A stretch of DNA of 64,000 nt, from contig JBJTUH010000088.1 of assembly GCA_046080605.1 (NCBI GenBank), positions 10,028-74,027 on the forward strand, read 5' to 3'. This stretch comes from Vampirovibrionales bacterium (GTDB lineage: Bacteria > Cyanobacteriota > Vampirovibrionia > Vampirovibrionales > JAJTHC01). Shown here in pieces: positions 5,605 to 23,753 of this stretch (within the stretch, counting starts at the first letter, position 1; each line of letters starts with the position of its first letter). A model generated the notes under the pieces. It was not told the origin of the DNA, did no database searches, and saw only the letters and a list, made by a program, of their open reading frames with translations. A program made the position numbers and the translations under genes.

Positions 5605-5632
5605 CGACTTGGAACAAATTAGAAATAAAATA

Positions 5633-5705
5633 TGCCACCAGCCGGAATCGAACCAGCGACACGGGGATTTTCAGTCCCCTGCTCTACCGACTGAGCTATG
5701 GTGGC
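5633..5705 (-). tRNA. tRNA-Phe: tRNA-Phe (anticodon GAA)
   Basis: Minus-strand reading: GCCACCA-TA-GCTCAGTCGGTAGAGC-A-GGGGA-CTGAAAA-TCCCC-GTGTC-GCTGG-TTCGATT-CCGGC-TGGTGGC-A. Anticodon is GAA. CCA is not encoded. Confidence 0.9.
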
Positions 5706-6176
5706 ATATTTGTTTTTTGATAAGTTACTTCAGTGAACGCATTGTATCAATCAGGCTTTTTAGTATGAAGCATTTTTGATTTAATGAACTTTGTAACACC
5801 TTTTATTAACTCAAGAATATACCCCCGTGTCAATGTTTCTCTTAAAACTCTTTATATCTTTCACAGGTATGAAGTATCTTTGCCAAGACGCTCGTGTATC
5901 TAGGCTAAAAGTTTGTTAATCCTACTTGCAAACTTTAGGAAAGGTCGTACACACTATGAGTAGTAAGTATGCGTATGGCGGTTTAAAACGCTACGCATGC
6001 CTTCATAAACAACGTTACCATCAATCAGAGGCTATGAGGTACGTTGTTTGCATAGGATATTCTGAAACCTGTTTGGTCAGTTTGATATTGTACGAAGTCA
6101 CTCTTCTTGTGTGTGGTATGTACTTGTTCGTTGTTGGCATCCATCAAGCTTTTTGCTTGCGTTTGGTTGACCGTTT

Positions 6177-9057: not shown

Positions 9058-10536
9058 TTAACGTTTTACCTTATTCCGTATTGCCGCAATAAGTTGAAAT
9101 ACCAAGAAACCCTGAATGATAAGTTGGCATGTAACCGAGACACTCATTAGTGTTGGGTGACAAGACATAGCCTTTTTCCACGTCGTTTCAAGAGTCTTTT
9201 TTATGAAGTAATCAGTGGGTAACGATAGGTTTAGACTTGTCCACCAGTGTTTTAGCCAGATCGATTGGTTTGTATTGTTAACAAGACAAGGTGCATTTAA
9301 TGAGTGATAAATCCATGCAAATACTCTTGAATTAATGAATAACCATACAATAGGTAACCCTATTGATAATCCAAAATGAGAGGAGTATAAATACAGTCTT
9401 AGTAAAACACCTTCTGGGGAAATGCAGTTTGTAACACCCCGAAGCCTGAACCAACTTTCCCAAAAGTAGAAGCTATGAGCAAGTTGTACTTCTCCTCTCT
9501 CTTGAGCCTTTGCTTTTAACTGGCTGTAGGTAATTCTTCCCTGCATTGCTTCTGTGGGCGAAGTATACTTTTCGTGAAGGCTAGGGGGTAAGCTTCCATG
9601 ATGAACCCACCATGTAAAAAAGTGATCAAAAAAGAAGAATAAGTTTATTATAATTTTATTAAGGAACTGAGTAGTTTTATTGCAATAAATAATTGTTTTA
9701 TTGGTAAAATGAGTAATTTTATTATATAAATCAATTATTTTGTTGAGAAACTGAGCAGGTTTATTATATAAATTAATTAATTCTGTTAAATATGTTTTTA
9801 TGTTTTCTATTGGAAATTGACGGGTTGTACTGTCTGGGAAAATACACTGGTCAAAGATAAACCCTGTTAAGCCATTTCCTCCTTCAATAGAAACATGTCC
9901 TAAGTCCCATTGAATAAGATAAATAGTTGAGGGGGGTAAGTAGCATTTTCTAAATGTGAGTGGCACACAATCAGTATTGGAGGAAGTGTTTTTTTGGCTT
10001 TCTATCGTATCTCCCTCTTGATCGTATTGTTTAAAGAATAAGGTACCAGAAGAGGCATAATTGATATTTTGAATCTCAGCTTTACCACCGTCATGATAGC
10101 TGACTTCAAAAACGCCTCCTGACTCAAAATGAGTATTATCTATTATGAAGTTACCAAAAACTTTTGTTTTCTCAACTTTAGCACTTTTTAAACATCGAGA
10201 GCTAAAAATAGCAAATCTCTTATGAAACTCACAATTTTCTATATTTAAGGTGTTTTCAAACGTGCAGTTTGAAAATGTAAAACCTTCTTGAAATATTACA
10301 CTTTTAATTTTAACAGGTTTTTCAAATACACAGTTTTGAAACTCGATTGTAAAGTTCAAGTCTCGCATGTTCTGGATGCGGAGTTCAAAATGGCAAGTGC
10401 CTTTAAAGACAAGTGGTATATTTCCCGGGTTCTCAAGCCATTCTGTAAGCTTAGTGTCGAGTTCTTCTTGAGATGTAATCTCGTCAAGTGAAAATTCATC
10501 TGCTGTAGGTATTTGGGTGGGTATCTGGTCTATCAT
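9058..10536 (-). CDS. Pentapeptide-repeat-like N-terminal domain fused to a multi-TM C-terminal domain; AT-rich gene
   Basis: N-terminal tandem A(N/D)LxF-type repeats (FQNCVFEKPV, FSNCTFENTL, IENCEFHKRF). A central 14-aa repeat region (LNKIIDLYNK...). C-terminal hydrophobic segments (LSIGLPIVWLFINSRVFAWIYHSL, LIIQGFLVFQLIAAI). GC is far below the window average, about 25-35% over 9600-10400. Confidence 0.4.
   Translation of the reverse strand: MIDQIPTQIPTADEFSLDEITSQEELDTKLTEWLENPGNIPLVFKGTCHFELRIQNMRDLNFTIEFQNCVFEKPVKIKSVIFQEGFTFSNCTFENTLNIENCEFHKRFAIFSSRCLKSAKVEKTKVFGNFIIDNTHFESGGVFEVSYHDGGKAEIQNINYASSGTLFFKQYDQEGDTIESQKNTSSNTDCVPLTFRKCYLPPSTIYLIQWDLGHVSIEGGNGLTGFIFDQCIFPDSTTRQFPIENIKTYLTELINLYNKPAQFLNKIIDLYNKITHFTNKTIIYCNKTTQFLNKIIINLFFFFDHFFTWWVHHGSLPPSLHEKYTSPTEAMQGRITYSQLKAKAQERGEVQLAHSFYFWESWFRLRGVTNCISPEGVLLRLYLYSSHFGLSIGLPIVWLFINSRVFAWIYHSLNAPCLVNNTNQSIWLKHWWTSLNLSLPTDYFIKKTLETTWKKAMSCHPTLMSVSVTCQLIIQGFLVFQLIAAIRNKVKR
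9646..9803 (-). repeat. Degenerate ~42-nt tandem repeat (about 4 units) inside the 9058..10536 CDS
   Basis: Units begin ttattataat.../ttattgcaat.../ttattatataaatcaatt.../ttattatataaattaatt... They encode 14-aa repeats KPAQFLNKIIDLYN / KITHFTNKTIIYCN / KTTQFLNKIIINLF. Confidence 0.5.
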
Positions 10537-10828
10537 TTTTGTCTTTTAATCTATCTTGCGACCATCTATTGATGGTTTATCAATTACTTATGATGTTTAA
10601 TTAAAGATAAAACTTTATAAAATAATGGATGTTTATTCATTTTACTGAAAATGGTTTTGTATCTCAAGGTGACAGATAATAGGTCTCTTTTCAAGGTTCT
10701 CTTGTAAGAATAGGATGAACCTTAAAAAGCATTTTTTTCATGGGCTAGAGTAAAAAAAGCCATTCGTTCAGTGCCAATGCACCAGTACCTTTGGATGTTT
10801 TTCTCTCCTTTTTAGCCCTAAGGACCCC

Positions 10829-12790
10829 ATGCCCATGATATTTTCTTTCCACGAGCCTCATGAATCCTCTGAGATGTCTGATGACATTATGCACATGCCT
10901 CTAGGTGCATCAGAGGAAACCCGTGCTAACATGTTAGCCATTGCTCACGAAGAAGAAGCCAGTGTGATTGCTTGGTGCAATGCGTTTAAGCAAAAAGCAA
11001 CCACGTATGCACAGGCAAAAAAACAAAAACTAGAGGTTGCCTATCGACATTTACAAGGGGTGTTTGACGCACAAGATGCCCTTCCTGTGCCTTTTATGAC
11101 GCAGCCAGGGATTGCAGATGCCCGCACACAACAGCGTTTAGACAAACAACGTCCTAAAACGTTTTTTCCGTTGACAAAACAGGTGGTGCATCAGTTATAT
11201 GCCCAGCTAAAACTCACGTTTTTCCCCAACGATGAAGATTACTTCCGAGTCAGAGGACGTGACCCTGAAGCAGCACTACTGGAAGATGATTTGACAGATG
11301 CACTCAAGCAGGTGTTCAAGGAAAACTTATTAACCGAACAACTAGGGGCTTTTCTGTTTGATTTATGTTGGGCAGGCATGGGGTTTGCCATTCCTGCCAT
11401 GGAAACCATCACCCAAAGTGAATGGTACTGGGATGAGGTTCAAGCCACTTATCAGTACCGCCCTGTGTTACAACAACGTATGACCTTGCATACCCTGCAT
11501 CCTATGAGCTTTTTCATTGACCCTCAAGCCTCTCTTGGACGATGGCATGAAAGTGCATGGTGTCATGTGGGAAAAAAGAAAATCAGATCCATCTTGGAAG
11601 AAGGATGTTCACAGCGTCACGTCCAACGGTTTCAAGCTCTTTTATATGGTACACATACCCTTGAGGACACCTTACGCTTTTCTGGCCTTACCCATGGGTA
11701 TCAGTTACATACTCATTTACCTTCCCCTGGAGAGACGGGGTCTTTTCCTGAGGAGTCTTCCCATGCCATGACGGGTGGAGCGTCTGGCAGTTTGCATGAA
11801 AAAGCCCTGACCTATGAAACGTTTTACTTTCCGTATTTAGAACTGCGTCATGACACAACCCAAGCCGTGAGGGTGTTACGTCATGTGAGTGTTCATGTGG
11901 TAGAGCATCAGTGGGTCGTGGGCGTGTATCCTAATACGTCCCCTCGTGCGGAAAATCCTGCGGTGTTTTGTCATTGGCATTTAACCCCAGAAGGACCCTA
12001 TGGTGAAGGTCCTGCAGAGGCTATCACTGAGTTACAACGCCTCGTAAATATCCTTGAAAATTACAAATTAGAAGCAATGGCACGTATTGGTAACCGTTTT
12101 GTGGTGCCTGAAGGGACTGACTTAAGTCAGTTTTTTGGTGTGGCAGGCGGTATTATGGTGACGGAGCGTCCGAATGATGTACAATCGTTCCATGGCGATT
12201 TCTCAGAAATTGCTACACTGATGAATCAAATAGGGATGCTCAAAGCCGAGGCTCAAATCACTTCAGGGGCGAATCATGCCTTCCAAGGTGCCAGTCAAAT
12301 TGACTTCAAAAAAACGGCGACTGAAATGCAAATCCTTCAGGAGCAAACCATTAATGATTTGCGTGAAGTGATTGAACATATCGGTATTATGGGAATTAAG
12401 CCTTTATTAGAGCGGTTTATGGTGTTAGTGGCACACCATGCGACTGAACCGATGTTGATTCGACAAGATAGCCCTACGGAAGGTACGGTCTTTAAATCGT
12501 TAGACTTACGAGTACTATTGTCGGGACGCTTTCATATTGAGGTGGTGAGTATTAATGTAGGACAAAGTAAGCAAAAGCAGTTGGAGTGGTTGACACAGCT
12601 GTTAACGCTTACCCAGAAAAATCCTGTATGGTCTCAGCAACTCAAGCAGGGTGGGTACCCTATTTTGAAAAAAATGGCAATGATTGCAGGTATGAAAGAT
12701 GTAGATGCTTTTCTCACCCCTCCTGTTGCTTCGTTTGAGGGAGGAGCGTCGGGGGATACTGCACCTTCTATGACGGTGCCTCCTATGTAG
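10829..12790 (+). CDS. Hypothetical protein resembling T7-like podovirus head-to-tail connector (portal) protein
   Basis: 653 aa intact ORF with normal GC. From my memory of T7 gp8, segments run in parallel. LYAQLKLTFFP matches LASKLMLALFP. DLCWAGMGF matches LVVAGNVLL. YGEGPAEAITELQRLVNILEN matches YGRSYIEEYLGDLRSLENLQE. GIMVTERPNDVQSF matches GDFVTGRPEDISF. No capsid or terminase neighbours are present. Confidence 0.45.
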   Translation: MPMIFSFHEPHESSEMSDDIMHMPLGASEETRANMLAIAHEEEASVIAWCNAFKQKATTYAQAKKQKLEVAYRHLQGVFDAQDALPVPFMTQPGIADARTQQRLDKQRPKTFFPLTKQVVHQLYAQLKLTFFPNDEDYFRVRGRDPEAALLEDDLTDALKQVFKENLLTEQLGAFLFDLCWAGMGFAIPAMETITQSEWYWDEVQATYQYRPVLQQRMTLHTLHPMSFFIDPQASLGRWHESAWCHVGKKKIRSILEEGCSQRHVQRFQALLYGTHTLEDTLRFSGLTHGYQLHTHLPSPGETGSFPEESSHAMTGGASGSLHEKALTYETFYFPYLELRHDTTQAVRVLRHVSVHVVEHQWVVGVYPNTSPRAENPAVFCHWHLTPEGPYGEGPAEAITELQRLVNILENYKLEAMARIGNRFVVPEGTDLSQFFGVAGGIMVTERPNDVQSFHGDFSEIATLMNQIGMLKAEAQITSGANHAFQGASQIDFKKTATEMQILQEQTINDLREVIEHIGIMGIKPLLERFMVLVAHHATEPMLIRQDSPTEGTVFKSLDLRVLLSGRFHIEVVSINVGQSKQKQLEWLTQLLTLTQKNPVWSQQLKQGGYPILKKMAMIAGMKDVDAFLTPPVASFEGGASGDTAPSMTVPPM

Positions 12791-12822
12791 TATCTTGCGG
12801 TAAGGTTGCGAGAGATGACAAA

Positions 12823-12862
12823 AGCATCACGAGCCACTGACTCGTGATGCTTGGTTTTATGG
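12823..12862 (+). terminator. Rho-independent terminator after the portal-like gene
   Basis: 11-bp stem AGCATCACGAG / CTCGTGATGCT with loop CCACTGA, then TGGTTTTATGG. Confidence 0.5.
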
Positions 12863-13213
12863 CTACTTTATAAGGGAAACACTATGAAAAATCCTGTGAG
12901 GATGCTTAGTGGCATAAGGTACTGACAAACCATAAAATGGCTGAAATGGCACCGCAAACGCCTGCCGCTAAGCAAATAAGCTTTACACTTGGGGTGAGTT
13001 CACCTGTGGAAGCATCTAAACCGTAATGAATATAGGCAAAATTAGTATGGGACATGGTCTTAGGGTCTCTTTCTCTCGTGAGGCTGGGGGTGGGGGGAGC
13101 GTGTGTATTAACGCAAGCTAAGGGTTAGGGTCATAGAGGTTTCACTGAGTTTATCTGGTGTGAAGAAAAGCTTCTCATCTCTCACAGAATCGGAGGAGGG
13201 TGAAGGACTTGCC

Positions 13214-14458
13214 TCAGGGTAATAAAAACGGTTGGATGGCAGAAATTGCCTTTTCTTGGAGTTGCCTTGTGTATACCGCACTATCAGTGTGTGAAGGTAC
13301 AAGCTGAAGCATCTTTTTAGCCATGCTTCCCATGCCTGCACCATGAACCTCTAAACGTGCTTGTTGTACTGGATGGCGATAAAATACGGCACTTTCAGGA
13401 CTAATCCCCCCTGAGAGTGTCAGCCAAGTCCAAGGAGGGTTGAAGGAAGGAGAAAGGGTGTGATAACGTGCATGCATACGATAGGCAACATGCCAAGCGT
13501 ATGCATGAGGAGAGGTCTGAGAGGGCATTGTATTAGACGTTTGGATGCCTTGTTGTTGTAACTGGTAGCCCGCCCCACCCATGGCAATGCCATCCACTTG
13601 AGCCATCCATACTTTATGGGTATTGATGGTTTTAACCCATGTGTCAAATGTTGCCAGAAAAGTCTGCTCTTGTGCTTTACACGCTAAAGAGGCTTCCTCT
13701 GTGACAGGTCGCCAACATAACGAGAGGAGCTTGTCCTTTAATCCATCTTCGAGTGAGGTGAGCAGCTGTAAGAGTGCTTCTTGGTTGAGGTGTTCTGTAT
13801 GAAGTTCTACCATCGTAATGGCAGGGTGACGTAAGAGGGTTTGGAGTGTTTCAGAGGCTTGCGTGATAGGGTGTAATGAGAGTGCTTCTGTTGGACAAAC
13901 GGGAATACATTGGTTACAGCCGTAACATCGGGTATGAACCATGTCAAGAGGATGACTTGGCGTGGGCGTATCAGGCAGTGCAAAAACTTGGGTGGGGCAT
14001 ACGGGGATGCAGGCACTACACTGAATACAGGCTTCTGTCTGGAGTTCAATGGTTTTAAAGTGAGGGTCGCCGTCAACATCAAGGCTTACCATGAGGGCGG
14101 GAAAAATAGGTGTAGGGCCTGGGTGGTCTAGGGCTAAACGTTTGAAACTTTCTAAGACCGTCTCAAGCACGGAGGGGTCTGCTGCAAGGTCAAAAACTTG
14201 AACGCCACTGAGGGCGTACGCCGTACATAGTTTTTCAATGAGTTCGGTATCTTTAAAACTTGCCCCTAAAATAAGCTTAATATACCTGTGGTGCCTCAAG
14301 GCTTCTATCACTTCGGGTAGGCGATAATGGGTGATAACAGGCATAGGACGAACGCTTACAGGATGGTTTCTTCTATAGATGGTGAGTGCTACACTAGGAA
14401 AGCTTTTGGTATCAATGGTGTGTCGTAACGGCACTCTCTGCGAGCAAAGAAAGCACAC
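13214..14458 (-). CDS. LdpA-like iron-sulfur protein (Ycf23-like N-terminal region plus two 4Fe-4S ferredoxin motifs)
   Basis: Two CxxCxxCxxxCP motifs (CIQCSACIPVCP, CYGCNQCIPVCP). N-terminal KLILGASFKD...VFDLAADP region resembles Ycf23/LdpA. The likely true start is the ATG at 14344 (MPVITHYRL...). Confidence 0.4.
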   Translation of the reverse strand: MCFLCSQRVPLRHTIDTKSFPSVALTIYRRNHPVSVRPMPVITHYRLPEVIEALRHHRYIKLILGASFKDTELIEKLCTAYALSGVQVFDLAADPSVLETVLESFKRLALDHPGPTPIFPALMVSLDVDGDPHFKTIELQTEACIQCSACIPVCPTQVFALPDTPTPSHPLDMVHTRCYGCNQCIPVCPTEALSLHPITQASETLQTLLRHPAITMVELHTEHLNQEALLQLLTSLEDGLKDKLLSLCWRPVTEEASLACKAQEQTFLATFDTWVKTINTHKVWMAQVDGIAMGGAGYQLQQQGIQTSNTMPSQTSPHAYAWHVAYRMHARYHTLSPSFNPPWTWLTLSGGISPESAVFYRHPVQQARLEVHGAGMGSMAKKMLQLVPSHTDSAVYTRQLQEKAISAIQPFLLP

Positions 14459-14500
14459 GATAACCTTTCTGCTTTTATTATCATACCTAGAAGGAACGCA

Positions 14501-14785
14501 ATGTCCATGTTTTCAGCCCCTCTTCTTCCAGACCCTATACCAGAGCCTCGTTCGGGAGGTATTACACTAGAAGGCTTACCTTGGCTTGCCAGAATGACTG
14601 ACAAAGCAAGGCTACAACCCACGGGTGCCTTAACCATCTTAGATCTTGATTATCCCTGTCCGATGGATCAGCAATTGTTACGAAAGCTTCAGCTTACAGG
14701 AGAGTCTTTTCAAGCCCTAGCACTTGCTTTGGATGATGCTGCCCTTGTGACTCATTTGAAAGCTCATGGGCATTGGCCTGTTTAA
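14501..14785 (+). CDS. Conserved small hypothetical protein (GLPWLARMTDKARL motif)
   Basis: 94 aa. The motif LEGLPWLARMTDKARL resembles a conserved DUF-type small-protein family. The function is unknown. Confidence 0.3.
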   Translation: MSMFSAPLLPDPIPEPRSGGITLEGLPWLARMTDKARLQPTGALTILDLDYPCPMDQQLLRKLQLTGESFQALALALDDAALVTHLKAHGHWPV

Positions 14786-15184
14786 CGCTCGGCCTTGCCT
14801 AAAAAAAAGGGGATAGAATATTCAATATTCTATCCCTCTCTCTGCAATCACACTAGAACGCAAAAGGTCGGGTTTATCCCTAAGTGGTTGTTATGAAAAT
14901 AGCTCACTCACAAAAGTAACTTCAAAAGATACTAAAAATATTAGTGAGTCAGCACACTGGCAGTGATGTCATTTATGCGTGTGATTTCGCCGAAAACGTC
15001 GCCTTTTATGAGACATGATGTCTGTTTTAGGAAACTCATATCGTACAAAGCGTACTTTACATGACTTACCCAAGAACTGTTGCGAAAGTTTCAAAAGGAA
15101 ATACTATAAAAACATAACCAATTTTACTATGACATGTTTTTTCGAAAATGTCAATTCTGTGACAATACTTTTGGCGCAGAGGTT

Positions 15185-16840
15185 TCAGGCAGAAGCTTGT
15201 TTAGGATGAACATGATGTACCCAACATGTTGTAAACACGCCTAAAAGGATCCACATGAGACACTGAATAGGAGGACGAAACCAGACCGTATCCACAAAGC
15301 CATGAAGAAGTAAAATGGCAATGGCAGAGCCACTTGCAAGAAGTATCCATGGGGTATCTGTGGATGTGGCGTTTGTCGTCTTAGGGTCTTGAGGCGGTGT
15401 TTCGATGGTACCCATAAGGCAAATACTTATCAGTACCCCTAGCCCCAGGAACCATAGTAAGCCTCCAAGCCCCAGTTCAACAAAATACTCAAGAGGTACA
15501 CTGTAAGCACCAAGGGCGTTAAAGCCGCTGTGCATGTAAAAACCGTACACTTTTTTGAAGGTATCGTTTCCTGGACCAATGCCAAATAGCCAATGGTCTT
15601 GAATCATGTGTAACACACTCTGATAGACATGAAAACGATAGGCAATGCTACTGTCTTCTGCCATTTTCCCAATAGAAAGTAGACGATTCAGTAAGGCAGG
15701 CGAGAGCCATAATGCACAGCTTGCTAACAGAGTAGTTGTGCCTCCTAGGGTTAGCCACCATGTTTTCAGGCGTTGCTTGGTGTCTGTTCCTCTGTCTGTG
15801 GTTGTTGGCACATACCACAGGACATGTCCTAGGGCTAAGTAACTTGCCAATGTCATGCAACCTGCAGACACGTAGGCACCACGGCATCCGCTCAACAAGA
15901 TACCCAATAACAAGAGTCCTGTCAGTGTGACTCCAAGTACTAAGGGCTTCAATGAGATTGCTTTTGTGGTTTGGTGGGTAGGGTGTTGCTGTAGCTTCGG
16001 GTGTATGAGGTGTTCCCAAAGAGGGCGAATGACTCCGAGAATCAGAGTCAAAGCGTAAGTAGGTAGTAAAAACCCTGCATACAAATTAGGGTTTAAAGGC
16101 AGCAGTGTTCCAAATACTCGTGTGAGTTGGTGTTCGGGTAATGTCGAGGGGTCAACCCATGTAGCTTGAGGGGCAACGCCTAGCTTGTATTGATAGAGTC
16201 CAATGCCTGCTTGAAGGATGCCCGCTCCTATCACCCAATACAACGGGTGCCAATGCTTGATGGGGGTTTTGGTTTTTTGTGTCACTAAGTAGTGGCAAGC
16301 GATTCGGGTAAAGCCGTAGCAGGGGATGACCATCAGGCTATATTTGAGCCATCCAATCAAAGCGCTTGAAATAAAAGAGGACCAAGCGGTGGCTAAAACA
16401 ATGAGTGCAAGGTAAAGGAGGACATACTGGTCTAGAAGTGCTTTAGGGTGTACCAGCCACTGCCATAGGTGTTGAAGGGTCAATGCGATGCCTTGACGGT
16501 ACCCTGCCACACCTCCCCATAAGAGGCAGGAACTTACCAGCATCAGTGCAATCGCATCAGAGGACATAACAGAAAATCCTACAAGCCATACTAGCCAGGT
16601 ACTCCAGAGTCCGAGTATCATACCCCAAGAAGTCTGAGGCACTGCTGCTTCACCAATACTGTTAGTGTCTGTTAGCGTAGGCTCTTGGAGCAATGAAACA
16701 GTAGGCGACTTCCATAAAACTCGACACAGCCACCCAATGAACCTAGAGTGCCATAGGGCATCACCCCAAGGACTCAACCAAGCAGTTTTGGAGTAAGGTG
16801 TATCTTCGGAAGCAACAAGGGAGGCGGGCATATCGGGCAT
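15185..16840 (-). CDS. O-antigen ligase (Wzy_C)-family polytopic membrane protein, IctB-like
   Basis: 551 aa with at least 10 TM segments and a large periplasmic loop. It resembles the O-antigen ligase / cyanobacterial IctB family. Confidence 0.45.
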   Translation of the reverse strand: MPDMPASLVASEDTPYSKTAWLSPWGDALWHSRFIGWLCRVLWKSPTVSLLQEPTLTDTNSIGEAAVPQTSWGMILGLWSTWLVWLVGFSVMSSDAIALMLVSSCLLWGGVAGYRQGIALTLQHLWQWLVHPKALLDQYVLLYLALIVLATAWSSFISSALIGWLKYSLMVIPCYGFTRIACHYLVTQKTKTPIKHWHPLYWVIGAGILQAGIGLYQYKLGVAPQATWVDPSTLPEHQLTRVFGTLLPLNPNLYAGFLLPTYALTLILGVIRPLWEHLIHPKLQQHPTHQTTKAISLKPLVLGVTLTGLLLLGILLSGCRGAYVSAGCMTLASYLALGHVLWYVPTTTDRGTDTKQRLKTWWLTLGGTTTLLASCALWLSPALLNRLLSIGKMAEDSSIAYRFHVYQSVLHMIQDHWLFGIGPGNDTFKKVYGFYMHSGFNALGAYSVPLEYFVELGLGGLLWFLGLGVLISICLMGTIETPPQDPKTTNATSTDTPWILLASGSAIAILLLHGFVDTVWFRPPIQCLMWILLGVFTTCWVHHVHPKQASA

Positions 16841-18311: not shown

Positions 18312-19397
18312 TTAGAAAACCCAAGCTTCTCCTGTTACACGATAGTGTAGGAGGGCTTGGGTTTTTTCGTGGGCGTAGTGTTGTAATACCCACTGATAAA
18401 ACTGTACTTGGGTATGCTCTAAGTGATGGGTTTCTTGAGATGTGGCGTGTGCGGATTGAGTGAAACGAAAATGAATGCTGTGAGACGCTTGGTGAGAGGC
18501 GATATCGGCTGTGGTCAGTGTGTCTTCTGGTAAAACGACAGGGTGATAGGGTTGTGTAAGGAGTGTTTCGGCGGGGTCTAAACATGTGGGAGAGGGCATG
18601 TTGGGGTTGGAAGTATGCCATGCGTGTTTTAACACACTTTGAATGAGAGGGTAATGCGTACACCCTAGTACCCAGTGATAAGGAAGGGGTGTTGGGTGCG
18701 TTGAGAGGATTTTTTTTGGGGGGGCTGCTAAAGTTGCCAACGTTGTAAAAGGAAGGCGGAGGACTTCTTGCAGTGGGATACCGCCTGACGAGGTCGTATC
18801 GGTCTTTAAGGAGGTGAAATCTGCTTCAGTTTGGAACGCATGATAGAGTGTGTTTTCTACCCAACTTGCTAACCCTGAACATGCCACAGGAACGCAAAGC
18901 GTTTCCCATGTTTGTGCAAGTTCATGGGTTCTTAGGGTCTGCGACAATAAACGAGGGTATACGCCAGAGCTTGCAGTTAAAGGCGTTGCCAAAATACCCA
19001 TGGGTCTTAATGAGGGTGGTGTGATGTTTTGTTGATGATAGTGGTGACACGTCTTGACAAGGGTTTCACATACGGCATGGATGGGATCCCATACCTGATA
19101 TTGTGATTGTAGGAAAGGCAAAAAATCTTCTGCCGTGACGCTCACTAATGTATTACAGGCAATCACGATAAGGTCTGGCTGAAAGGCTTGAATGCAAGTT
19201 TCTAACAATGCAATGACTCGTGGTTTTAGGCTTTCTCGAGAACGCTCACCGTATGGAAACCAAGCAGTGTCTGCCACATAGCAAGCCTCTAGTGCGATGT
19301 GATTTTGGGTTGCCTGTTCTAGTAAACGTGCCAGCACACTGAGTCCTCCGATACCAGAGTCAATCAGAAGCACTTTTTGTTGTTTGACCAATACCAT
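18312..19397 (-). CDS. murI: Glutamate racemase with a C-terminal extension of about 90 aa
   Basis: LLIDSGIGGLSV and IVIACNTLVSV correspond to the MurI motifs (D-S-G-x-G-G-L and V-I-A-C-N-T-A). 361 aa against roughly 270 typical. Confidence 0.6.
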   Translation of the reverse strand: MVLVKQQKVLLIDSGIGGLSVLARLLEQATQNHIALEACYVADTAWFPYGERSRESLKPRVIALLETCIQAFQPDLIVIACNTLVSVTAEDFLPFLQSQYQVWDPIHAVCETLVKTCHHYHQQNITPPSLRPMGILATPLTASSGVYPRLLSQTLRTHELAQTWETLCVPVACSGLASWVENTLYHAFQTEADFTSLKTDTTSSGGIPLQEVLRLPFTTLATLAAPPKKILSTHPTPLPYHWVLGCTHYPLIQSVLKHAWHTSNPNMPSPTCLDPAETLLTQPYHPVVLPEDTLTTADIASHQASHSIHFRFTQSAHATSQETHHLEHTQVQFYQWVLQHYAHEKTQALLHYRVTGEAWVF

Positions 19398-19740: not shown

Positions 19741-21231
19741 GTGCTATTAAGAGGGTGTGCGATGTTTAACATAAAAGTACAGGAGCTAATAATCGTGAGT
19801 CAACAGCCTAATCAATGGGTGCGTTTGAGTGTATGTACGTCTTTAATGCTGGGTTGTGCAGTGACTGCACTGGCTGCGAGTCCTGTCACGAATACTTGGA
19901 ACCAGTGGCGTTTAGAGACCTCAACACTTTTTGGAGATACGCTTCCTGATAGTGCAACGAGTGTGGATGTACGTGAGACGGCGAAACAGTTTGTGGTAGG
20001 ACTCAATAGCAAAAAGGCGGTGATGCCAAAACCTACGGTATTATCGACCACGCTAGGTACACCTGCGGCTCAAAGTAAGGCACAATTACTGGTAACAGAT
20101 GATAAGGGTATTCCGTTGCGGAACATTCGCCTTGGAGGCGATCAACTCGATGATGTGGTGATTGAGGGAACACAACAAGCGATTGTTGCGATTGGGGATT
20201 TTGGGCTTGTAAAACTTACCCCGAAAGATGACAAAATTGCTTGGCAGAAATCCATCTCTCAGGTGGGTAATGCGACGGCAAGTAAAGGTCGGCGTGTTGC
20301 TTCAGGTGCAGATGGTACCATTGTTGCTTTAGCTGGAAATGTTGTCTATATTTATAAGCCTGATGGTACCTTGGTGAAGCAATTTGCACCCAATACGCAA
20401 GGTCGTCCTGAAGATATTGCTTATGACCCCAAAACAAAAACGGTCATTGTGGGTGGATGGTCACAAAAAGATGGAGGTGGCTGTAAGCAACTCCAAACCC
20501 CTTGGGTACGTGCTTATGACCTGCAAGCTAAACAAAAATGGCAAGCATGGGATTATTCACACTTACAATCTTTTACGACAGAGTCTTCTTGTGCTGATTC
20601 TCGGATTACAAGAGTGAAGATTGGATTGGATAATAAATTATACTTTGCAGGGACTACCGATGGTGGAAACAGTATTTTCCGTATTCATCCCAGAGATTTG
20701 AAACGACGTAATACCGTTGTGAAAGCTGACATGTTCACGGATACCTATGGGATGAAAGGTGCAAAGAAGCTCATGTTCTTTGCACGAATGAATCCTGGCA
20801 CTGGGGATGTAGAACAAGGACAGTTTTATGTGACTCGGTTGTCGGATGGTTCAGGGAACTCTATTTCTCCTAGCGATATTACGGCAAGTGCGAATGGTAC
20901 TGTCTATTTGACAGGTGCCGCAGTAGCCTTTTTTGCAGGTCGTGATAAGCAGGTGATTAATGGGAAAGCCATTGGTGCCTATCAAGGAAGTGATGGTTAT
21001 GTGCTTGTGGTGCCTTCTTCATTTAAAGGAAGACTTTTCATGAGTTCACCTCACGTGGGATGTAACTTAACCATGAATGCGATTGCTTTGGGAAGTTCCT
21101 CGGCATCAATTGCAGGTACAGCCAATACTGGGTGTAAAGCTGTATTAGAAAGACCTTGGCAAACCACGGTAGGTGGTGATAAAGACGCATACTTTGGTGC
21201 TTGGTCCTTGTTGACAGGCTATGCTCCCTAA
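19741..21231 (+). CDS. Secreted or lipoprotein hypothetical protein, beta-propeller-like
   Basis: N-terminal signal peptide with a lipobox-like LMLGCAV. Repeated G-x-DG-T/K-V/L-Y strand motifs. No catalytic motif recognised. Confidence 0.35.
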   Translation: MLLRGCAMFNIKVQELIIVSQQPNQWVRLSVCTSLMLGCAVTALAASPVTNTWNQWRLETSTLFGDTLPDSATSVDVRETAKQFVVGLNSKKAVMPKPTVLSTTLGTPAAQSKAQLLVTDDKGIPLRNIRLGGDQLDDVVIEGTQQAIVAIGDFGLVKLTPKDDKIAWQKSISQVGNATASKGRRVASGADGTIVALAGNVVYIYKPDGTLVKQFAPNTQGRPEDIAYDPKTKTVIVGGWSQKDGGGCKQLQTPWVRAYDLQAKQKWQAWDYSHLQSFTTESSCADSRITRVKIGLDNKLYFAGTTDGGNSIFRIHPRDLKRRNTVVKADMFTDTYGMKGAKKLMFFARMNPGTGDVEQGQFYVTRLSDGSGNSISPSDITASANGTVYLTGAAVAFFAGRDKQVINGKAIGAYQGSDGYVLVVPSSFKGRLFMSSPHVGCNLTMNAIALGSSSASIAGTANTGCKAVLERPWQTTVGGDKDAYFGAWSLLTGYAP

Positions 21232-23102: not shown

Positions 23103-23753
23103 ATGCTTAAAGACCTGTTAAAAATTGGATTAACGTTGGGGATTATTTGTAGTTGTTTGTATACCCCTAGTGTGGTGTCTCAATTCTCTCAAGAGGTGGT
23201 TTCAGGTGTAAAGCACCAAGTGACACATGTGGCACAGGCTCAACATACCCCCCTTTTGAAGGAAGCTTTGGGTCTGATTGCGTCTCGGTTACCTGATGCC
23301 CATGCTCATAAACCCCCACATCAGGGAGGGCAAGATGTCCTTGACTTAAGTCACCCTGAAATTCAAGTACAGCTTGACCCCTCCAGTAAAGCGTTGGCGG
23401 TGGATGCGATTATGAATGACCAAGTGGCAGGGCGTTTTATTGTGGATACAGGTGCAACCTACACGGCAATTACGAGTGATACTGCTGATGCGTTAGGGGT
23501 TGATACGAGCCATGCCCAACGTATTCCCATTATGACGGCGAGTGGGAGAATTTTTGTGCCTAAGGTCACGCTTGCTGTTTTGCGTCTTGGAAGTTTAGTG
23601 GCTCATGATGTTGAGGTGACCGTGCTTCCCGTGAGGCAAACGCCACAGTTTTCTGGCTTGTTAGGACTCAATTTTACAAATCGGTATATCATGACCGTTG
23701 ACCCCACTCAATCACGCTTGATTTTTAAACCTCGTCAAGATGTCACTGAATAA
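23103..23753 (+). CDS. Retropepsin-like (clan AA) aspartic protease, membrane-anchored
   Basis: RFIVDTGATYTAITSDTADALGV is a D-T/S-G-A active-site pattern in the TIGR02281-like context. N-terminal TM segment. Confidence 0.5.
   Translation: MLKDLLKIGLTLGIICSCLYTPSVVSQFSQEVVSGVKHQVTHVAQAQHTPLLKEALGLIASRLPDAHAHKPPHQGGQDVLDLSHPEIQVQLDPSSKALAVDAIMNDQVAGRFIVDTGATYTAITSDTADALGVDTSHAQRIPIMTASGRIFVPKVTLAVLRLGSLVAHDVEVTVLPVRQTPQFSGLLGLNFTNRYIMTVDPTQSRLIFKPRQDVTE

Follow-up and report, generated by a model that had tools for sequence, protein, structure and literature searches.

Portal proteins nucleate the phage shell, dock the terminase and conduct DNA, with the clip of the ring docking first the terminase and then the adaptor. 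To our knowledge, they are regarded as a part of the virion that has no use outside a capsid, and the domestications of virion genes that we know of involve either sets of genes, as in gene transfer agents (GTAs), tailocins and contractile injection systems, or the capsid protein, as in the encapsulins. Here we describe a portal gene that stands alone among host genes in a 64-kb stretch of DNA, called the window below, from a Vampirovibrionales bacterium (GCA_046080605.1, contig JBJTUH010000088.1, positions 10,028-74,027 of the forward strand). The gene, an intact open reading frame (ORF) at 10829..12790 on the plus strand with 653 residues from its first ATG, as the initial annotation had it, encodes a full-length phage portal protein. 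It represents a known portal family in a previously undescribed genomic and evolutionary state, and it is an exapted gene, neither a relic nor part of a prophage.

Identity of the portal and absence of its phage module

The protein belongs to the Pfam family SU10_portal (PF23899), which it matches with 45.8 bits (cut-off, 30; E=3.9e-12) over residues 377-633, corresponding to profile positions 313-569 of 593. PHROG 332 matches at 4e-26, and the portal PHROGs 1216 and 156 match too; a search of NCBIfam gave no match. The sole significant match in a sequence search of the PDB was the portal of cyanophage A4 (9k09_D, E=0.005). An AlphaFold2 model calculated with 48 homologues had a mean predicted local distance difference test score (pLDDT) of 78.3 and a predicted template modeling score of 0.75, with low confidence limited to residues 1-24, 281-322 and 641-650 (pLDDT below 50 at 281-322). 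Foldseek aligned the entire model to solved portals over 610-700 columns, so that the portal fold is present at full length; 139 PDB chains were matched at E<=0.001, and all 50 of the listed matches were portals or portal-tail complexes.

The initial annotation had recognized a portal and called it T7-like. Portal homology is borne out by the PF23899 score and the full-length Foldseek matches, but the T7 label survives only in part. T7 gp8 (6qwp_A) does share the fold, with a Foldseek E value of 2e-13, further down the list than cyanophage A4 (4.8e-18) and separated from it by matches that include VP1, SU10, Pa223, Pan3 and N4. The Head-tail_con profile (PF12236), proposed earlier as the check, reached 25.2 bits against a cut-off of 27, which leaves the protein outside the T7 family. 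The two motifs that it had quoted from gp8, VTGRPEDISF and LASKLMLALFP, are both present in gp8 and the first aligns with the window protein as claimed, although the pairwise BLASTP match is marginal (E=0.051, 25% identity over 154 residues). Since PF12236 stays below its cut-off and BLASTP against gp8 gives only this value, an SU10/cyanophage-A4 type is the better label, and the window portal is a distant cousin of gp8 rather than a member of its group. The SU10-type portals of A4 (9k09), VP1 (8zkk) and SU10 (7z44) align with the whole model at Foldseek E values of about 1e-17 to 1e-18 over 630-650 columns, while sequence identity to these solved structures is only 12-14%.

The family has few members: in 1.84 billion representative proteins, an exhaustive HMMER search found 65 matches at E<0.001, and a tblastn search of 50,697 cultured phage genomes gave no match at E<=1e-5. 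Typical members are 30-41% identical to the window portal, and most of them lie inside contiguous phage gene modules, on contigs of about 15-43 kb or in prophages. Three such modules, L003, L007 and L008, share the order portal, small gene, gene of about 200-230 residues (probably a scaffold) and N4-gp56-type capsid gene. A Terminase_3 match lies upstream of the portal in L003 only, and an SU10_adaptor gene lies downstream in L003 and L008, so that the metagenomic relatives of the window portal adjoin adaptor and capsid genes of the SU10 and N4-gp56 types. L003 is a prophage, with terminase, portal, capsid and adaptor, in the Vampirovibrionales metagenome-assembled genome (MAG) GCA_035285165.1; its head/adaptor module also holds a Colicin_D-like toxin gene and a colicin-immunity-like gene (14082..15685 of that locus), an unusual position for such cargo. 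In a search with a capsid profile, at least 21 phage-type portals shared their contig with an N4-gp56 capsid, and further related capsids were annotated from Vampirovibrionales.

The portals of L003 (cluster P0017) and L007 (P0006) are 36-41% identical to the window portal over about 90% of its length, and core motifs such as LFPNDEDYFRV and FKKTATE are common to both. They differ from it in sitting within contiguous phage modules. The window copy, in contrast to SU10-type portals, has no adjacent terminase, scaffold, capsid or adaptor gene and behaves as a host gene. We ran Pfam on all other window ORFs of at least 120 residues, and each proved to be a host gene or to have no family match; the host genes include those for FliD, DapB, a Pat-like acetyl-CoA synthetase/GNAT protein, an LdpA-like Fe-S protein, a Wzy-type ligase, LigA, SSB, S6, Ddl, TilS, SmpB, MurT and IF2. 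No terminase, capsid, scaffold, adaptor, tail or integrase gene was found among these ORFs, and PHROGs gave nothing for the ten ORFs closest to the portal, including five without a Pfam match at E<=0.001. The adjoining large terminase, scaffold and major capsid genes of a phage head module are thus missing, and host genes flank the portal for 10.8 kb on one side and 51 kb on the other.

A tblastn search with the 53 proteins of the three phage and prophage modules, made against the window and two further lone-portal loci (L006 and L001, described below), pointed the same way. Only the portal gave a match attributable to a phage module. The one other significant match (8e-11), of the L008 lytic transglycosylase to a 775-residue SLT-domain protein of the host in L001, is due to a generic domain, and no pseudogene debris of neighboring phage genes was detected with these proteins. 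The earlier statement that the window holds no other phage gene is therefore upheld by Pfam, PHROGs and tblastn alike. Neither the window nor the other lone-portal loci contain a head-tail cluster of the kind expected for a GTA, and none of the best 120 matches to the N4-gp56 capsid lay on the contigs of P0001-P0003 (74.7, 175 and 60.8 kb), the three lone-portal clusters that the first search had found.

Descent and selection of the lone portal

The solitary portal occurs in five independent loci that form two deep sublineages, all from MAGs or metagenomes: the window, L006, L001 (represented as L001/L002), L012 and L013. L006 comes from a Lake Mendota Vampirovibrionales MAG, and its portal protein is 76% identical to that of the window. 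The L001/L002 protein is 51% identical to the window protein, and those of L012 and L013 are 95-99% identical to L001. L012 and L013, both from the Joint Genome Institute (JGI), were found by looking up cluster members; a pattern-based portal scan of metagenome contigs recovered no member of the lone clade. In the window, L006, L001 and L013 the portal lies tail-to-tail with the same ldpA-like gene, which is followed by DUF5069, and the L012 sequence stops short of the ldpA position, so the synteny check suggested earlier gives the same neighbor in four of five loci. Between the window and L006, synteny runs about 9 kb downstream of the portal. The upstream genes differ in every lineage, and no conserved upstream partner was found, the neighbors of 94, 507, 249 and 492 residues each being lineage specific. 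The junctions between portal and host genes are the same in independent assemblies from NCBI, Logan and JGI.

A neighbor-joining tree built from 48 members of the family groups the lone portals in a single clade, supported by all 200 bootstraps, set apart from the module-borne portals and nested among phage sequences. A search for an empty site with the ldpA-like protein returned only L009, a short and distant contig that differs in gene order. Tree and synteny together indicate one capture, loss of the remaining phage genes and then vertical descent: a podophage portal gene was captured once by an ancestor of a Vampirovibrionales lineage, all surrounding phage genes were lost, and the portal has since descended vertically as an ordinary chromosomal gene.

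The base composition of the portal follows each host lineage. Its GC content in the window is 0.460 and that at third codon positions (GC3) is 0.420, compared to 0.463 and 0.414 for the other window genes, in a locus with a GC content of 0.44. The L001 portal has a GC content of 0.63 and a GC3 of 0.84 in a locus of 0.59. The relative synonymous codon usage (RSCU) of the window portal correlates with that of the other window genes at r=0.89, compared to a gene mean of 0.70. The host-like composition and normal GC content reported by the initial annotation are thus confirmed.

Between the window and L006, the identity of the portal genes by codon position is 0.76, 0.85 and 0.43, and the proportions of nonsynonymous (pN) and synonymous (pS) differences are 0.19 and 0.78, the latter saturated. 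Synonymous divergence (dS) is saturated between the deep lineages, and we therefore used raw pN and pS and codon-position identities there and calculated the ratio of nonsynonymous to synonymous divergence (dN/dS) from unsaturated pairs, namely the three GC-rich loci L001, L012 and L013. The portal has a dN of 0.009-0.031 and a dS of 0.43-0.58, giving a dN/dS of 0.022-0.055. The corresponding values for its neighbors are a dN of 0.029-0.093, a dS of 0.49-1.18 and a dN/dS of 0.06-0.08 for a 163-residue gene, 0.037, 0.72 and 0.05 for DUF5069 and 0.121, 1.17 and 0.10 for the ldpA-like gene. The portal therefore lies at or below the flanking host genes (0.05-0.10), and it is under very strong purifying selection. 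L001 and L013 differ in their portals by about 140 synonymous and about 12 nonsynonymous changes, and nearly all of the amino acid changes fall before residue 106 or after residue 633. Protein identities between the window and L006 are 76% for the portal, 57% for the ldpA-like protein, 55% for Wzy, 73% for DUF4330 and 76% for DUF5069.

The lone proteins also keep most of what is conserved in phage portals. Across 45 phage-type sequences, 92 alignment columns show a conservation of 90% or more, and of these columns 77, 74 and 83 are retained in the lone proteins. Overall, 84-90% of the family-conserved residues are kept in the lone portals, including the clip and tunnel-loop motifs, and the fixed replacements specific to the clade are only five, all conservative (R to K, K to Q, N to H twice and L to V). 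The most conserved part of the lone clade is a helix/short-strand/helix stretch with the tunnel-loop motif at codons ~391-500 (11999..12328, plus strand), delimited from secondary structure, conservation in 30-residue windows and the alignment, with 70-83% identity between the window protein and P0003; by general portal architecture, it would correspond to the stem and clip. Compared to the phage family, the lone clade is most constrained at residues 121-180 and 391-480, while the wing strands (residues 181-360) are at or below the family average. A variable, disordered loop at codons ~270-325 (11636..11803, plus strand), modeled with low confidence by AlphaFold2, is longer by about 20 residues in the window and L006 proteins than in L001 and all phage relatives (64 versus about 40).

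An exapted gene is expected to be inherited vertically at one fixed site, to have lost the element that brought it and to be under purifying selection, and all three were found. The portal occupies one locus, forms one clade, matches its hosts in composition and has a dN/dS of 0.022-0.055 in the unsaturated pairs, from which we conclude that it is exapted. Of the two possibilities raised by the initial annotation, a co-opted intact portal under selection is the one that agrees with these data; the dN/dS check proposed there revealed purifying selection, and the alternative of a prophage relic is contradicted by dN/dS and synteny.

The immediate surroundings of the gene

NCBI places the start of the portal at the second ATG, 10835, giving a product of 651 residues (MFM7468769.1) that is listed as a hypothetical protein of the Vampirovibrionales MAG. 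On inspection, a Shine-Dalgarno-like AAGGA is seen at 10820..10824 on the plus strand, with an inferred function in initiation; it lies 4 nt from the ATG at 10829 and 10 nt from that at 10835, and it appears better spaced for the latter. The terminator ascribed to the gene has a counterpart in a terminator-like hairpin at 12822..12852 on the plus strand, 32 nt past the stop codon, consisting of a 12-bp stem and a 7-nt loop followed by GGTTTTATGG. The divergent AT-rich neighbor and the 292-bp spacer between it and the portal are likewise as described: the neighbor lies at 9058..10536 on the minus strand, encodes 492 residues and has a GC content of 0.348. A sigma-70 scan of the spacer found no plus-strand promoter and no enrichment.

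Besides the portal itself, the locus has several features of its own. The neighbors of the portal in the window encode a pentapeptide-like protein, a Pat-like acetyltransferase and the LdpA-like Fe-S protein. The first of these is the 492-residue ORF, whose sole family match is a weak one to pentapeptide repeats. Its composition is foreign (RSCU correlation of 0.31, compared to a window mean of 0.70), and none of the other lone-portal loci has it, so that it was probably inserted recently and has no connection with the portal. The ldpA-like gene at 13214..14458 on the minus strand is the constant neighbor of the lone portal. LdpA is known as a light-dependent period protein of the cyanobacterial clock, and here an LdpA-like protein is encoded in an order regarded as nonphotosynthetic; it evolves faster than the portal, with identities of 57% and 37% compared to 76% and 51%. 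Between the two genes lies an unannotated hydrophobic ORF of 49 residues (12906..13055, minus strand), with a counterpart in L006 (11910..12062, minus strand) that is 80% identical in protein sequence (pN 0.11 versus pS 0.57). In the GC-rich lineage, an unrelated 163-residue gene occupies this position (11882..12373 in L001, and also in L012 and L013).

Farther out, the window encodes a retropepsin-like aspartyl protease (Asp_protease_2/gag-asp_proteas) at 23103..23753 on the plus strand, which is also found on the syntenic P0002 contig. Neither Pfam nor PHROGs matches two sizeable ORFs at 19741..21231 (plus strand) and 18312..19397 (minus strand), both of which are syntenic with L006; one of them is highly conserved (82% identical to L006) and the other is fast evolving (49%). 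Genes for a type I restriction-modification specificity subunit and a RhuM-like protein occur on the P0002 contig and in L006 (1..1617), and in this Lake Mendota genome they are located some 9 kb upstream of the portal. Housekeeping genes lie between them and the portal, so there is no clear defense island around it.

Possible roles and comparison with known systems

We consider it fairly probable that a phage portal has here been turned into a stand-alone host protein that could serve either as single-gene immunity, sabotaging the capsid assembly or DNA packaging of related podophages, or as a new cellular ring or channel. The initial annotation had proposed a defense or decoy system and a cellular nanomachine as candidate roles. 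The protein probably still forms a 12-mer ring that uses native portal interfaces, a state made likely by the retention of 84-90% of the family-conserved residues with the clip and tunnel-loop motifs, and such a ring would be predicted to work through the portal interfaces, especially the clip. Our best overall explanation, held tentatively, combines capture and a retained portal ring with an action on infecting phages. This last step, in which the portal would act on infecting relatives of the donor phage and abort their packaging, is the role that we favor, although it is less probable than not. The targets would be A4/SU10-like podophages with N4-gp56-type capsids, which do lysogenize Vampirovibrionales; that related phages infect this order follows from the L003 prophage and from the related capsids annotated from Vampirovibrionales. 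The host-made ring or its subunits could nucleate, or co-assemble into, the procapsids of the infecting phage, or the conserved clip could bind and sequester the phage terminase or adaptor. DNA packaging would be aborted by either route.

Several observations weigh against an antiphage role. PADLOC-DB v2 gave no match at E<=0.01 for the portal or for eight of nine tested neighbors, the sole match being a chance-level one to BrxP on the Fe-S protein (E=0.0039), and no defense island is evident around the portal. A gene engaged in an arms race is expected to evolve fast, and the portal is almost frozen. With an unaltered clip and tunnel loop, it bears no mark of a "poison" version of the phage protein. 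Partner genes may lie elsewhere in these genomes, and the evidence comes from five loci in two deep sublineages, of MAG or metagenome origin only.

Two explanations would deny the gene any exapted role. It is very improbable that the portal is a functionless, decaying prophage remnant left intact by chance. Prophage decay does often leave isolated structural genes, and the upstream flank is variable and holds an AT-rich, foreign-looking gene, but the ORF is intact in five independent loci, there are no pseudogene fragments of neighboring phage genes, and the protein is still 51-76% identical between deep lineages whose synonymous divergence is saturated. With dS ranging from 0.4 to saturation, the five loci are not recent transfers of one sequence. 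The low dN/dS, together with conservation better than that of the adjacent ldpA-like and Wzy genes and with the shared synteny, rules out a decaying relic. The chance that the gene belongs to an intact prophage, to an island integrated at tRNA-Phe or to a phage/host assembly chimera is negligible. A tRNA-Phe gene does lie 5.1 kb from the portal, at 5632..5706 on the minus strand, much as the initial annotation said when it hinted at integration there, and related prophages occur in the order. However, the minus-strand orientation of this gene puts the portal on its 5' side, whereas integration at the 3' end would have left an element on the opposite side. Ordinary host genes, including the Pat-like acetyltransferase gene, intervene; the search for att-like repeats recommended earlier detected no second copy of the tRNA-Phe 3' end in the window, even with three mismatches; and Pfam found no integrase family match in the window. 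We therefore rejected a tRNA-Phe-integrated island. Host genes over 10.8 kb and 51 kb on the two sides, the recurrence of the junctions in independent NCBI, Logan and JGI assemblies and a GC3 matching each host essentially exclude a prophage part or an assembly chimera.

Two other explanations accept that the gene has a function. The portal ring might have a cellular role unrelated to phages, for example as a channel or docking ring for the transfer of DNA or protein in bacteria that are probably predatory, or as a scaffold with a host partner bound to its clip. The low dN/dS and slow, housekeeping-like evolution are more in keeping with a stable cellular partner than with an arms race, the composition is wholly host-like without a defense signature, and the wing is less constrained than the clip and stem. 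Yet the transcription unit holds no conserved partner gene, the only constant neighbors being convergent; no signal peptide or membrane segment is evident from the sequence; the DNA-tunnel motifs of packaging portals are retained; and the distribution is limited to a narrow lineage. On balance we regard such a role as rather unlikely. It appears unlikely as well that the portal still serves, as it did originally, in a particle of phage origin encoded otherwise by unlinked genes, as in a dispersed GTA-like system or a scattered cryptic prophage. This would predict the retention seen here of nearly all portal-specific conserved residues, including those of the clip and tunnel loop, and unlinked genes are possible in genomes that are incomplete MAGs. 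Against it, the portal lies inside a contiguous phage module in every phage relative examined and within the head-tail cluster in known GTAs, the 64-kb window holds no other structural gene, and among the best 120 matches to the well-conserved capsid family none lay on the 74.7-, 175- and 60.8-kb contigs.

Capture of a portal that still forms a ring and acts on infecting phages thus remains our tentative preference, and the maintenance of the gene itself has implications under any functional role. A dN/dS of about 0.02-0.05, sustained through synonymous saturation and a shift in GC3 between 0.42 and 0.84, implies that a portal on its own has an activity from which a cell benefits. If this is correct, the gene would provide the first example of a bacterium that employs a portal ring by itself, and identifying its activity would reveal either a new kind of cellular machine derived from phage or a new principle of immunity, in a simple one-gene system. 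Full-text phrase searches of the literature returned no report of a stand-alone portal, and a 2022 review of mobile-element genes recruited in prokaryotes does not mention portals (PMC8987985).

Among the systems that resemble this one, GTAs, for example through the portal of RcGTA, offer the likeness of a phage portal under purifying selection in a bacterial chromosome. They differ in that their portals are clustered with terminase and capsid genes, and no such cluster exists in the window or the other loci. Encapsulins, stand-alone HK97-fold capsid genes that are thought to be phage derived, involve another protein and another fold, and no cargo or partner gene is evident beside the window portal. 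The analogy with them is one of evolutionary route: in both, a single virion gene has been kept alone and is used by the host.

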